Virus record (IMG/VR): IMGVR_UViG_3300023214_000676
Origin: a virus
Length of the DNA: 11,620 nucleotides
Reading direction: 5' to 3' (one strand)
The position numbers and the translations under genes were made by a program. The notes under the pieces were generated by a model. It searched no databases and was not told the origin of the DNA. It saw only the letters and a list, made by a program, of their open reading frames with translations. Shown here one piece after another: positions 2,700 to 6,382 of this stretch. Within the stretch, counting starts at the first letter, position 1. Each line of letters begins with the position of its first letter.

Positions 2700-5048
2700 C
2701 TAGTCCTTCGGCTTCATCGCGGCTTCCGTGCCGCCTGTCGGCGCGGCTCCGCCGGCGAAATCGCTTGCCATGCCGTCGGCCAGCATCAGCCGGACAGCGT
2801 CTTTGAGATCGTCCAGCAGGTGCACCCGCATCTCCTGGATCGCTTCCTTCGGGACCTCGGAGAGGTCGTGACGGTTGTCCTTGGGAAGGGCAACCTCCCT
2901 GATCCCGGCACGGTGCGCAGCCAGGATCTTCTCCCTGATGCCGCCCACGGGCAGGACCTTTCCGCGCAGGCTGATCTCGCCTGTCACGGCGAGATCGTTC
3001 CTGACGGGACGCCCCGACAGCACGGACACGAGGGATCCTGTGAGAGCCACCCCTGCGCTCGGCCCGTCCTTCGGCGTGGCGCCGGACGGGACATGGATGT
3101 GGATGCTGGCCCGCTCCGCCTGCTGCCGGTCGATGCCGAAGTCGTCGGCGTTGGACAGGACCCACGCCTTCGCCAGCCTGGCTGATTCTTTCATGACATC
3201 GCCCAGGTTGCCGGTGATGGAGACTTTCCCGCCCCGCTTGCTCGTCTTGATGGTCTCCAGGAACAGGATGGATCCCCCGTGCGGTGTCCATGCGAGGCCC
3301 GTAGCCACTCCGGCCTGGGGCCGGTCCGCCATCTTCTCGGCGTGGATCCGCGGCGGGCCGAGAGCCTTCCTTGCCGCAGGGACATCGATCACTTCCGGGA
3401 CCTGGCCGCCCATGGACACCTCCACGGCGAACTTCCGCATGAGGCGGCCGCATTCCCTTTCGAGGCTGCGCACGCCCGCCTCGCTCGTGTACTCGGAGAT
3501 GATCTTCTCCAGCGCGGCGTCGGTCACCGAGATCTCGATGTCGGCGAGTCCGCTTTCCTCCTTCTGCTTCGGCACGAGGTAGTGCCTGGCGATCCGGAGC
3601 TTGTCGAACGGGGAATACCCGGCGATGTCGACGATGTCCATGCGGTCCCGGAGAGCCGGGTGGAGCTGGCTTTTGTCGTTCACGGTGGCAATGAACATCA
3701 CCTGCGAGAGGTCGAACCCCACGGCCACGTAGTTGTCCACGAAGGACTTGTTCTGCTCGGGATCCAGTACCTCCAGCAGGGAGGCGGACACGTCGCCCCT
3801 GCCGTAGCGCCCGACCTTGTCCAGCTCGTCCAGCATGAAAACCGGGTTGCGGACCCCGGCCTTCCGGATCTCCTGTACGATTTTTCCGGGCAGCGCGCCG
3901 ATGTATGTGCGGCGGTGGCCGCGGATCTCGGCCTCGTCGGAAACGCCGCCCAGGGAAAGGCGCACGAACTCCCTGTTCATGGCCTTGGCGATGCTCTTGC
4001 CCAGGCTCGTCTTGCCCACTCCAGGAGGGCCGGACAGGCACAGGATCATCCCCTTGCGCTCCGGCGCCAGCTTGCGCACGGCGAGGAACTCCAGGATCCT
4101 GGACTTGGGCTTCTTGAGGCCGTAGTGATCGGCGTCCAGCACGCGCTTTGCCTCCGCCACGTCGATCTTGTCCTCCGACAGGCGGTTCCATGGCAGAGAG
4201 ACCAGCGTCTCCAAGTAGTTCATGGTGACGCCAAAATCGGCCATGTCGGCCCTCATCACCTGGAGGCGGCGCAGCTCGGAATCAGCCACGCGCTTCGCCT
4301 CGTCGGTCATGCCGGCTTTCTCGATTGCCTGGCGGAGGCGCTCGATCTCGGCGCTTTTCGGATCCGCCGGCTTGCGGGGCCCGCCCCCGATCGGCGGCTT
4401 CGGAGGCGGATCCGCCTCGAACTCTTGCACCTCCTGCTCGTCCTCGGCCCTCCGCAGAAGGGTGTGGAGAAGCTCGGCCCTCTTCCCGGCATCCGGGAGG
4501 TTCAGCAGCCCCACCTTCTCCTTGATGGGGAGGGGGGCATAGAACGACAGCTTGTCGATGAACGCGGAGAGCTCCGAGGAACTCTTGGGTTCCTGCATCG
4601 GCCGGAACGAGACATCCCGGAGGGACATCGTCAGGCCCTGGAGCATGACGGCCAGCTTCTGCAGATGCTCCGTGAACTCCACCTTGGCTTCGGCCACGGG
4701 GGAGAAAAGGCCAAAGACCATCCCGTGCTTGTGCTCGATCTTCTCCAACGAGATCCTGGCCAGGCCCGCCACATGGGCACGCACGCGGCTTGATCCCCCG
4801 CCGCTCAAGTCCTCCACCCGATTGAGACGGGCCTTCACGGCGCATTTGTACAGTTGCGCCGACTTCGCTTCCTGGGCCGACGGATCGATCTGATATGCGA
4901 TCACCAGGCGGCCTCCGAACTGCTCTTGGGCGGCTCGGACGGCCGCTGCCGATTCGGGGCGGCCGATCTCGATCGCCCGGGATGTCAACGGAAAGACGAA
5001 AGCGTTGCGAGTCTTGATCGGCAAAACAGGGAGTCTGACCAGTTCCAT
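2700..5048 (-). CDS. lon: ATP-dependent Lon protease (LonA type), 782 aa. LON N-terminal substrate-binding domain, AAA+ module, S16 peptidase domain.
   Basis: ATG at 5048 is preceded by AGGAGG (5052-5057), which overlaps the stop of the upstream AAA gene.
- N-terminal domain: LPVLPIKTRNAFVFP..IEIGRPES (Lon N-domain)
- Walker A: LSGPPGVGKTS
- Walker B: VFMLDELDK
- S16 catalytic dyad: HIHVPSGATPKDGPSAGVA (Ser) and GGIREKILAAHRAGI (Lys). Confidence 0.9.
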   Translation of the reverse strand: MELVRLPVLPIKTRNAFVFPLTSRAIEIGRPESAAAVRAAQEQFGGRLVIAYQIDPSAQEAKSAQLYKCAVKARLNRVEDLSGGGSSRVRAHVAGLARISLEKIEHKHGMVFGLFSPVAEAKVEFTEHLQKLAVMLQGLTMSLRDVSFRPMQEPKSSSELSAFIDKLSFYAPLPIKEKVGLLNLPDAGKRAELLHTLLRRAEDEQEVQEFEADPPPKPPIGGGPRKPADPKSAEIERLRQAIEKAGMTDEAKRVADSELRRLQVMRADMADFGVTMNYLETLVSLPWNRLSEDKIDVAEAKRVLDADHYGLKKPKSRILEFLAVRKLAPERKGMILCLSGPPGVGKTSLGKSIAKAMNREFVRLSLGGVSDEAEIRGHRRTYIGALPGKIVQEIRKAGVRNPVFMLDELDKVGRYGRGDVSASLLEVLDPEQNKSFVDNYVAVGFDLSQVMFIATVNDKSQLHPALRDRMDIVDIAGYSPFDKLRIARHYLVPKQKEESGLADIEISVTDAALEKIISEYTSEAGVRSLERECGRLMRKFAVEVSMGGQVPEVIDVPAARKALGPPRIHAEKMADRPQAGVATGLAWTPHGGSILFLETIKTSKRGGKVSITGNLGDVMKESARLAKAWVLSNADDFGIDRQQAERASIHIHVPSGATPKDGPSAGVALTGSLVSVLSGRPVRNDLAVTGEISLRGKVLPVGGIREKILAAHRAGIREVALPKDNRHDLSEVPKEAIQEMRVHLLDDLKDAVRLMLADGMASDFAGGAAPTGGTEAAMKPKD

Positions 5049-5051
5049 GGA

Positions 5052-5057
5052 ACCTCC
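5052..5057 (-). promoter_or_regulatory. Strong Shine-Dalgarno (AGGAGG) for the lon start, overlapping the TAG stop of the upstream AAA ATPase gene. Evidence for translational coupling.
   Basis: Minus-strand read cgaTAGGAGGttccATG. The spacer is 4 nt. Confidence 0.6.
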
Positions 5058-6382
5058 TATCGGGTCCGGCGGCTCTGCCGCCCCTTCTTCTCCTCAGCCG
5101 CGGCGGCGGTGAGCTTGCGGATCTTCGCCTTCAGGTCGGGCATCCTGGCCACGCGCCTCATCTGCCTCAGCTGCTCCGGCATGGGGCCGAAGCCGATGAT
5201 GGAGGTGCGAAGCATCACCTCCCTCAGGTAGGCGCCGGTCATGCCCGCAGTCAGGCGGACCAGCTCGGTCATGTCCGCCCCCTTCAGCTTGACCGAGAAT
5301 CGCTTGGCGTAGGCCTTGAGGATCGCCCTGCGCTGCCTGGCGTTGGGGGAGGAGAACTCGATGACCTCGTCGAACCTTCCAGGACGACGAAGGGCTTCCG
5401 GGATGTCGCTGATGTCGTTGACGGTGGCGATGATCAGGCGCTTGCGCTCGCGCACATGCCGGTTGAGCTGCTCCATCTCGTTGAGCATCTCCTCCGGCCT
5501 CCAGAGGCGATCCATGTCGTCGAACAGGACGACCGCCGGGTCGACGATCTGGATGATGTCCAGCAAGGCGGCGAAGCGCAGGTTGTCCAGCCCCCTAGGG
5601 GTCAGCACCAGCAGCTTCCCGTCCATCTTCTCGGCTATGCGGGCCGCCAGCGTGGTCTTTCCCACGCCGGGAGGGCCGAAAAACAGGATGGACCTGTTCA
5701 TGCCCATGTCGTAGAAGCGACGAATCCTCCTGAGGAACTCGTCCTCGTCGATGGGGCTGACATAGGCCTCGCTGCTGAGGTCGAGGCTGGTCAGGAAGGG
5801 AGTGTAGTCCCATCCTTTCTGGAGGACGCTGACGGCCAGGATGCTGCCGAGGCGGCCGCGCACCAGCTTGGAAAAAGCCTCGACGAAGAGCGTCTCGTCC
5901 ATGACCCAGGGACCGCGCACATTGTCGTGATCCTCGTCATTGCCCGTCACGGCGAAGTATACGGGCACCCCGATGTCGAACTCCTCGATCTTCCTGGCGT
6001 CCTTGGCATCGTCCTTGCCCTCTTCAGTCTCCCGCCACAGCTCCTTGCTCGGCAGGTCCATCTGCCGGAAGGTGAGGTAGATGAACTTCCCCATCATCGG
6101 GAACACCAGCTTGGCCCCCATGTCCCGGAGGCGGTCGATGGCCTGCTCCTCTTCCGCCTCGAACAGCTCGGCGACTACTCCGATGGCGGAGAGGCTTCCC
6201 AGCATGAGGGAGATCGGATCCTTCCTCTGGACGGCATTGTAGATGTCCAGGGCCTCCCTGGCCATCTCCGTCACCTTGGCCAGGACGGTCCTGGCCTTGC
6301 GGATGGCATCCGACCGGCGGAGCTGGTATTTCTTCCTGGCCCGACCCTCGGGTGCCTCGGTTACTTCGATGTGCTTCGGCAT
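5057..6382 (-). CDS. Classic-clade AAA ATPase (about 441 aa from ATG 6382) with a roughly 270-aa N-terminal domain of unknown function.
   Basis: - Walker A: ILFFGPPGVGKTTLA
- Walker B: AVVLFDDMD, an atypical D-D in place of D-E
- Second region of homology: RRPGRFDEVIEFSSPN
- Start: ATG 6382 overlaps the end of the upstream ligase gene by 22 nt. The next in-frame ATG is 6265, preceded by aaggtg.
The long N-terminal extension in the ORF track (from 6574) is rejected. Confidence 0.75.
   Translation of the reverse strand: MPKHIEVTEAPEGRARKKYQLRRSDAIRKARTVLAKVTEMAREALDIYNAVQRKDPISLMLGSLSAIGVVAELFEAEEEQAIDRLRDMGAKLVFPMMGKFIYLTFRQMDLPSKELWRETEEGKDDAKDARKIEEFDIGVPVYFAVTGNDEDHDNVRGPWVMDETLFVEAFSKLVRGRLGSILAVSVLQKGWDYTPFLTSLDLSSEAYVSPIDEDEFLRRIRRFYDMGMNRSILFFGPPGVGKTTLAARIAEKMDGKLLVLTPRGLDNLRFAALLDIIQIVDPAVVLFDDMDRLWRPEEMLNEMEQLNRHVRERKRLIIATVNDISDIPEALRRPGRFDEVIEFSSPNARQRRAILKAYAKRFSVKLKGADMTELVRLTAGMTGAYLREVMLRTSIIGFGPMPEQLRQMRRVARMPDLKAKIRKLTAAAAEEKKGRQSRRTR

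Follow-up and report, generated by a model that had tools for sequence, protein, structure and literature searches.

The occurrence of a complete Lon protease gene between genes for an AAA ATPase and an MVP-like protein in a viral metagenomic sequence raises the question of whether the three proteins work together, and for whose benefit. The sequence is IMG/VR record IMGVR_UViG_3300023214_000676, of which the whole stretch of 11,620 nucleotides (nt) that was analyzed is termed the window; the AAA ATPase and LonA genes are at positions 2,700 to 6,382 (Table 1). An earlier note, made from the letters of the sequence, had proposed a system-specific Lon that processes or degrades MVP or its cargo, or that serves in a conflict system, next to an AAA ATPase with an atypical Walker B motif. 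The window was compared with related metagenomic contigs and loci (denoted by L numbers), whose neighborhoods were readable to 10 kb of flank. We moderately favor the reading that the AAA ATPase and LonA constitute a phage-encoded module for proteolysis and remodeling, located in a host-takeover region, with MVP as a facultative neighbor. Direct observations are that both proteins are identified and intact, that their genes are invariably adjacent, that the Asp-Asp (DD) Walker B of the AAA ATPase is invariant, and that the context is of phage type; the role assigned to the pair is our proposal.

Pfam matches to the Lon protein comprise LON_substr_bdg (PF02190; residues 6–200, E 2.6e-18), AAA, Lon_lid (PF22667), and Lon_C (PF05362; 2.6e-73), and NCBIfam model TIGR00763 (“lon”) is matched with 735.3 bits (cut-off 608); with 570 bits, the score falls short of the cut-off of 891 for the E. 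coli-type model NF008053. The protein aligns end to end, from residue 5, with the solved LonA 7yph of Meiothermus taiwanensis (570 bits), and has the domain order, length, and catalytic and ATPase motifs of bacterial LonA (endopeptidase La, MEROPS family S16); unlike 7yph, it has a variable Pro/Gly-rich linker (residues ~200–232). S664 and K707 align with the Ser-Lys dyad of the solved LonA, and the pore loop YIGALPGK is present; Walker A, Walker B, pore loop, Ser, and Lys are kept in every related Lon that was aligned. Judged by these motifs, the window encodes a catalytically intact, full-length LonA, as had been claimed for it.

In a neighbor-joining tree, the AAA-linked Lons on phage-type contigs form one clade, separate from bacterial LonA; the window Lon is 42–46% identical to LonA proteins from Myxococcota and other bacterial phyla. 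Thus, in contrast to bacterial LonA, the window Lon belongs to a clade of its own, resides in a phage-type genome, and has a specific AAA ATPase encoded upstream. The distinct clade, the constancy of the upstream AAA gene, and the phage-type synteny (below) argue against a housekeeping gene that is here by chance. A cellular genome with a separate housekeeping lon, as envisaged in the earlier note, is not the setting, and comparison with a housekeeping lon is inapplicable because the setting is very probably a large phage genome. Among related Lons, the split gene in L020 was traced to a masked run of N, an artefact rather than a frameshift. Another related Lon, P0115 (L111 4060–7470, 1136 amino acids [aa]), contains a 354-aa intein-like insert within Walker A (GPPGVGK, insert, T); it is otherwise intact, with the AAA gene 4 nt upstream.

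The open reading frame (ORF) of the AAA ATPase spans 5057–6574, with the best start at ATG 6382, since an identical 441-aa protein (P0001) and orthologues of 446–463 aa support this position. The protein possesses Walker A (GPPGVGKT), Walker B (VVLFDD), sensor-1 N322, RRPGRFD with two arginine fingers, and GMTGAYL. The second region of homology with two arginine fingers and the sensor-1 Asn assign it to the classic AAA clade, in agreement with the earlier note; R332, R333, R336, F337, and D338 are invariant in 24 orthologues, as are Walker A and sensor 1, and the family profile matches p97/Cdc48, AFG2, and NSF at E ~1e-39. Walker B departs from the classic hhhhDE form, with D289 opposite the catalytic Glu of both D1 and D2 in a profile alignment to p97. 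This peculiarity is conserved: DD is shared by each of the 24 full-length orthologues, even at 30% identity, and it occurs, in a motif scan of relatives from an exhaustive N-domain search, in the 17 more distant cluster representatives for which Walker B was detected (in one further representative the scan found Walker A and did not detect Walker B). An aromatic-hydrophobic-Gly pore loop 1 was not found; only a short, unconserved stretch (LRFAAL, PRGRSI, KSTGSV) separates Walker A from Walker B, and where it aligns with the WF pore loop of p97 D2 it has no aromatic residue.

Counted from ATG 6382, ~230 residues precede the AAA core, rather than the 270 given in the earlier note for a gene with that same start; the view that this N-terminal region has no assignable family stands, as Pfam searches at E 10 with ten of these N-domains gave nothing. 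It is predicted to consist of two long helices and an alpha/beta domain (approximately residues 24–215). The AlphaFold2 model of the protein (predicted local distance difference test score 79.7) has spastin, Bcs1, YjoB, and FtsH as its closest folds, with YjoB and Bcs1 as the top Foldseek matches for the full model. The N-domain is rare: only 25 cluster representatives share it among 1.84 billion proteins, most of them 400–480 aa in length, and a scan of 185,579 GTDB genomes with an N-domain-only alignment, based on a single peptide pattern, recovered no relative.

YjoB and Bcs1, which have Asp at the catalytic Walker B position, are reported to be active ATPases and chamber-type chaperones (PMC9565160). 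Because these enzymes are reportedly active with Asp at this position, the substitution in the window AAA does not by itself imply the substrate-trap-like behavior suggested previously. The resemblance has bounds: Walker B is ED in Bcs1 and YjoB and DD in the window AAA; Bcs1 possesses BCS1_N, for which the window AAA has no match, and likeness of the N-domain folds is unconfirmed; and the AAA domain is closest by sequence to p97/Cdc48, PAN, and FtsH. No clear transmembrane anchor of the Bcs1 type was found in a Kyte-Doolittle scan, in which the conserved helix PIS..LG.LSA.G.VS.LF was borderline (1.3–1.9).

Several observations concern the AAA family beyond its core. The tail after the lid (5057–5150, the last ~30 residues) is basic in the window and closer relatives (net +4 to +8), and acidic in the L024-type lineage (−7 to −8). 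A single sequence, P0022 (707 aa, on a 3-kb JGI contig), has a T4-type RNA ligase and the AAA ATPase in one reading frame, which may be either a natural fusion, suggestive of joint action by the two proteins, or the product of a sequencing or assembly frameshift. A second DD-type AAA, 32% identical and without Lon, is encoded on the 115-kb contig of L019 (L023 10001–11377); it adjoins HSP20 and is near a PARP gene (WGR, PARP_reg, and PARP catalytic domains), with NAPRTase and E2/ThiF genes upstream.

The AAA and Lon genes are closely joined. The stop codon of AAA (TAG) overlaps a Shine-Dalgarno sequence (AGGAGG) located 4 bases before the Lon ATG, with a gap of 8 nt between the genes, and the two are probably translationally coupled. 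Downstream, the Lon TAG is followed by ggcg and the ATG of the MVP-like gene (4 nt); upstream, the stop codon of the RNA ligase gene is 22 nt within the AAA gene. A single transcript for AAA, Lon, and MVP, as the earlier note assumed, is plausible and agrees with this gene spacing; in a scan of the window for promoter and terminator consensus sequences, counts were no higher than chance.

AAA immediately followed by Lon was identified in the window, L018, L019/L107, L020, L021/22, L024/25/108/109, L110, L111, and L112, and one further contig has both genes. The adjacency is uninterrupted in all eight independent lineages that have downstream DNA, among which AAA identity falls from 60% to as little as 37%. 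Seven lineages have spacings between a 1-nt overlap and 27 nt; on the short contig of L110 the tblastn matches to AAA and Lon are ~136 nt apart. Identities of the two proteins fall in parallel across most lineages. By contrast, one or two small ORFs intervene between ligase and AAA in L017, L018, L020, and L021, and Lon is followed variously by MVP, an MVP remnant, a Pyr_excise gene, an unrelated 232–247-aa gene, or small ORFs. The conserved unit is therefore AAA-then-Lon, with variable genes on either side. Of the proposal for a system-specific Lon, a dedicated, non-housekeeping enzyme with a DD-type AAA partner is retained, whereas the tie to MVP is not.

Judged by the gene content and size of related contigs, the window very probably derives from a large bacteriophage that is uncultured, or else from a mobile element of comparable size. 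The only recorded proteins identical to the window AAA and Lon are those of the window’s own JGI contig, and AAA orthologues are located on contigs of 42, 115, 306 (NCBI GCA_902730225.1), and 340 kb. These four share with the window a block that comprises the genes for the 177-aa protein, phosphoesterase, DUF5658, SLT, macro-like protein, RNA ligase (Rnl), AAA, and Lon, at 40–74% identity, and every window gene has a syntenic counterpart on contigs with phage-type genes. The related contigs additionally encode GP88, T4 rIIB, a T4 endoV-type glycosylase, a DNA methylase, ClpP (4 kb from Lon in L019), RlaP, NUDIX, NADAR, PARP, NAPRTase, and an E2/JAB/E1 set. T4-type ligase homologues were found in 780 phage records, and a Lon 46% identical to that of the window is on a 318-kb IMG/VR contig. 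The G+C content of related loci ranges from 40 to 66%, which suggests that the group spans different hosts. A megablast search of the window against GenBank phages gave no match, nor did an exact-sequence look-up of the Lon protein. When IMG/VR was scanned with the AAA protein and with the family alignment, all matches were generic AAA ones (≤35% identity), because the search patterns had been drawn from the P-loop; IMG/VR represents this phage group poorly.

The genes that surround the module in the window are of host-takeover or counter-defense type: a T4-type RNA ligase (tRNA repair), a macro-like protein, and phosphoesterases. In relatives, this type is represented by NUDIX, NADAR (like macro, an ADP-ribose hydrolase type), PARP, NAPRTase (NAD salvage), ClpP, HSP20, and E1/E2/JAB. 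We infer that, during infection, the phage would use the AAA–Lon pair as its own ATP-dependent system for proteolysis and remodeling. Particular proteins of the host or the phage would be degraded by Lon; given the takeover character of the neighboring genes, its substrates are likely to be host proteins or those made early by the phage. A chaperone or remodeler role in the same pathway would fall to the AAA ring, with a chemistry similar to that of Bcs1 and YjoB, in which Asp would act as catalytic base and proteins would be held or reshaped rather than threaded. The Asp shared with Bcs1 and YjoB, the lack of an aromatic pore loop, and the HSP20 gene beside the AAA paralogue point to such a holder or remodeler instead of a threading unfoldase.

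Certain observations weigh against this proposal. An IMG/VR Lon of the group (L106) has no such AAA upstream, so not every phage Lon requires the AAA ATPase. Shared ancestry accounts in part for the adjacency, since the genomes compared are related and collinear. We know of no precedent for a physical interaction between an AAA ATPase of this kind and LonA, which has an AAA+ ring of its own. Capsid and terminase genes were not seen in the readable 10-kb flanks of the related contigs. Finally, the MVP-like gene directly follows Lon in three divergent lineages, and thus a functional link between Lon and MVP may exist.

Adjacency of AAA and Lon might alternatively reflect co-regulation only, with the two proteins acting on separate substrates without physical or functional cooperation, on the model of clpX and lon, which are neighbors in E. 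coli. LonA is self-sufficient in every system characterized, and the Lon of L106 without AAA, as well as the AAA paralogue without Lon elsewhere in the same genome as L019, show that each gene occurs apart from the other. However, a junction that is never broken in eight lineages while its flanks are repeatedly remodeled, with minimal spacing in seven, is conserved more strongly than the surrounding collinearity, and we regard co-regulation alone as rather unlikely.

The MVP-like gene bears on a different alternative, in which all three genes are one system and Lon, AAA, or both would process, load, unload, or degrade an MVP shell or its cargo. The protein is recognizable as MVP-like by its Pfam match to MVP_shoulder (PF11978; 56.9 bits vs. 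a cut-off of 25), with the shoulder followed by the cap-helix, and by its phmmer match to rat and human MVP (E 3e-8, residues 477–791). Its shoulder and cap-helix regions align with those of rat MVP, and the two proteins are of similar length (861 aa in rat, 862 aa in the window). The repeat half, in contrast, is too divergent for Pfam, for which the only match is Vault_3 at 28.2 bits (cut-off 28.8). No counterpart of vault RNA, TEP1, or PARP4 of the eukaryotic vault was found in the window; tRNA and Rfam scans of the window gave no match, and thus no vault-RNA-like element was detected.

MVP directly follows Lon in the window and its 92–95% identical relative L113, which have the same junction; in L112, where the AAA is only 47% identical and Lon and MVP overlap by 8 nt; and in L018, in the form of a remnant (13753–14938) that retains the C-terminal 394 residues (469–862, shoulder and cap-helix), is split into two ORFs, and looks like a gene in decay. 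In the L024 group, MVP is located 5.5 kb upstream of the AAA–Lon pair. MVP identities across the group (56–68%) fit vertical inheritance with the module, which suggests that MVP was probably ancestral in the region and was later moved or lost. Nevertheless, there is no MVP within 10 kb of AAA–Lon in L019/L107, L020, or L021/22, and none downstream of Lon in L111. MVP also occurs without Lon: megaphage records LR756500/501/503 encode homologues ~40% identical, with no tblastn match to the window Lon anywhere in the record; 13 IMG/VR viral contigs (14–402 kb) have MVP homologues with no Lon or AAA within 10 kb; and the MVP locus of the myxobacterium Nannocystis punicea has unrelated neighbors with no Lon or AAA nearby. 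MVP homologues number in the thousands (>4,700 at E 1e-60 or better), as opposed to ~25 representatives of the AAA family. We conclude that MVP is a facultative, dispensable neighbor and not an obligate substrate or partner of AAA–Lon, and that machinery dedicated to MVP is unlikely; the dedicated Lon–MVP link proposed in the earlier note does not hold across the relatives.

The nearest bacterial sequences to both MVP and Lon are from Myxococcota, which is a weak hint to the host or to gene origin. Two MVP-like genes, 43% and 41% identical to the window MVP, are present ~210 kb apart on one 402-kb contig (L014/L015; IMGVR_UViG_3300032167_000002). A single report describes viral MVPs, from two gut phages, and makes no mention of Lon or AAA neighbors (bioRxiv 10.1101/2023.11.10.566534). 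The MVP-bearing region is rich in enzymes related to ADP-ribose and NAD, including the macro-like protein in the window (7687–8298) and NADAR, NUDIX, PARP, and NAPRTase in L017, L019, and L023. ADP-ribose has been reported to be bound at the shoulder of the human vault, with NADase and PARP4 (2026 preprint, 10.64898/2026.05.01.722283); the parallel may be coincidental.

A bolder form of the proposed module, which we consider quite unlikely, is a dedicated two-ring machine: a chamber of the Bcs1/YjoB type would pass folded proteins to Lon, in the service either of vault-like compartments built from MVP or of a phage ubiquitin-like tagging pathway (E1/E2/JAB). Genes for Prok-E2_D, Prok-JAB, and ThiF (E1) are located 4–8 kb downstream of Lon in all longer relatives (L019, L020, L021, L024, and L111), usually followed by NAPRTase; the window contig ends before that point.

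Virion morphogenesis was also considered, whereby AAA would move folded proteins into heads in the manner of BCS1-type ATPases, Lon would trim structural or packaged proteins, and MVP would perhaps itself be structural or packaged. The neighborhood has no recognizable structural genes, and is rich instead in nucleotide, RNA-repair, and ADP-ribose-related enzymes; known prohead proteases belong to other families. BCS1_N was undetected in the AAA protein, even though YjoB and Bcs1 are its top Foldseek matches, a head-import role has been proposed for BCS1-like ATPases of jumbo phages (Iyer et al., PMC7824862), and T4 Rnl1 is also a tail-fiber attachment factor (PHROG annotation). Taken together, we regard a role in morphogenesis as very unlikely. 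That the genes are a bacterial housekeeping lon or a host anti-phage defense module (BrxL- or IetA-like) on a cellular chromosome is extremely improbable, despite the 42–46% identity of Lon to bacterial LonA and weak PADLOC matches (BrxL 52 bits, IetA 55 bits), since all window genes are syntenic with phage-type contigs, Lon is in a separate clade, model scores are far below cut-off (BrxL 45.6 vs. 628 bits; IteA 48.6 vs. 510), the window has no other BREX, Iet, or IetS genes, and the AAA N-domain had no relative in pattern-limited scans of GTDB. The suggestion that Lon takes part in a conflict system likewise found no match to a known defense system in PADLOC beyond domain-level similarity.

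Phage-encoded proteostasis has precedents: jumbo phages encode ClpP, ClpS, ClpA/ClpX, BCS1-like AAA ATPases, and GroEL (Iyer et al., 2021; PMC7824862). As in the window, these are host-like ATP-dependent proteases and chaperones of large phages, and were interpreted as anti-host or assembly tools; unlike the window, LonA is not among the proteins discussed, and no fixed AAA–Lon pair is described. Lon, vault, and AAA are unmentioned by Al-Shayeb et al. (2020), and we found no paper on a phage-encoded LonA in the literature searched. INPHARED has no bona fide cultured phage with a close LonA; the only full-length LonA matches in GenBank phages are ~38% identical, from Moraxella phage Mcat3 and from draft contigs of Acinetobacter phage MD-2021a, of which we suspect the latter to be host-derived.

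All credible genes of the window (G+C content 65%) are on the minus strand, in the order, from the minus-strand 3′ end upward, MVP-like, LonA, AAA, RNA ligase, macro-like, SLT, DUF5658, metallophosphoesterase, and 177-aa protein (Table 1). The SLT and macro-like genes are separated by 330 nt (8295–8640, minus strand) that hold, in another frame, the 3′ portion of an ORF of 287 aa; translation from an internal Met (MSVIPEIICRVV...) would give a candidate Cys/His-rich protein of ~115 aa, and L019 has a 131-aa ORF in the equivalent position.

Table 1. Genes and motifs of the window, with positions counted from its first letter.
Feature	Position	Strand	Details
MVP-like gene	107..2695	-	862 aa; MVP_shoulder 2.7e-15; rat/human MVP E 3e-8; homologues 39–57% identical (megaphages, related contigs)
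LonA	2700..5048	-	782 aa; N-domain, AAA+ module, lid, and S16 protease domain (Pfam, NCBIfam)
Lon Walker A GPPGVGKT	4008..4031	-	Residues 340–347
Lon Walker B FMLDELDK	3816..3839	-	Residues 404–411; canonical Asp-Glu
Lon catalytic serine motif DGPSAG (S664)	3051..3068	-	Identical in all aligned AAA-linked and bacterial Lons
Lon catalytic lysine motif IREKIL (K707)	2922..2939	-	Alignment to solved LonA
Classic-clade AAA ATPase	5057..6382	-	441 aa; PF00004 2e-17; 24 orthologues; orphan N-terminal region
AAA Walker A GPPGVGKT	5654..5677	-	Residues 236–243
AAA Walker B VVLFDD	5516..5533	-	Residues 284–289; D289 in place of catalytic Glu
AAA second region of homology RRPGRFD	5369..5389	-	Residues 332–338; arginine fingers
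T4 Rnl1-like RNA ligase	6361..7560	-	phrog_562 3.7e-34; TIGR02308 4.5e-15; ATG at 7524 is the likelier start; position kept in all related loci
Macro-like protein	7687..8298	-	203 aa; phrog_335 6.8e-25; weak DarG match; in conserved block (synteny)
SLT lytic transglycosylase domain protein	8627..9178	-	PF01464 7e-10; synteny
DUF5658 membrane protein	9169..9768	-	PF18902 1.4e-11; synteny; true start probably downstream of ORF start
Calcineurin-like metallophosphoesterase	10078..10890	-	PF00149 1.5e-12; start at MKLAWLTD; synteny
Conserved 177-aa protein	10887..11420	-	60–73% identical in L017, L018, and L019

In the literature searched, we found no description of a complete LonA fixed beside an AAA ATPase of its own. 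The AAA family provides a natural, invariant Asp-for-Glu replacement in Walker B within a classic AAA fold, and thus a clean case in which this substitution can be tested, and MVP, as a recurrent yet dispensable neighbor, offers a tractable system, in bacteria and phages, in which to study the function of vault-like proteins. If the two-ring arrangement were true, it would represent virus-encoded, proteasome-like targeted degradation in bacteria. If the pair works as proposed here, phages themselves would control ATP-dependent proteolysis in the infected cell, which would bear on host takeover by huge phages and on their evasion of defenses that depend on protein stability.

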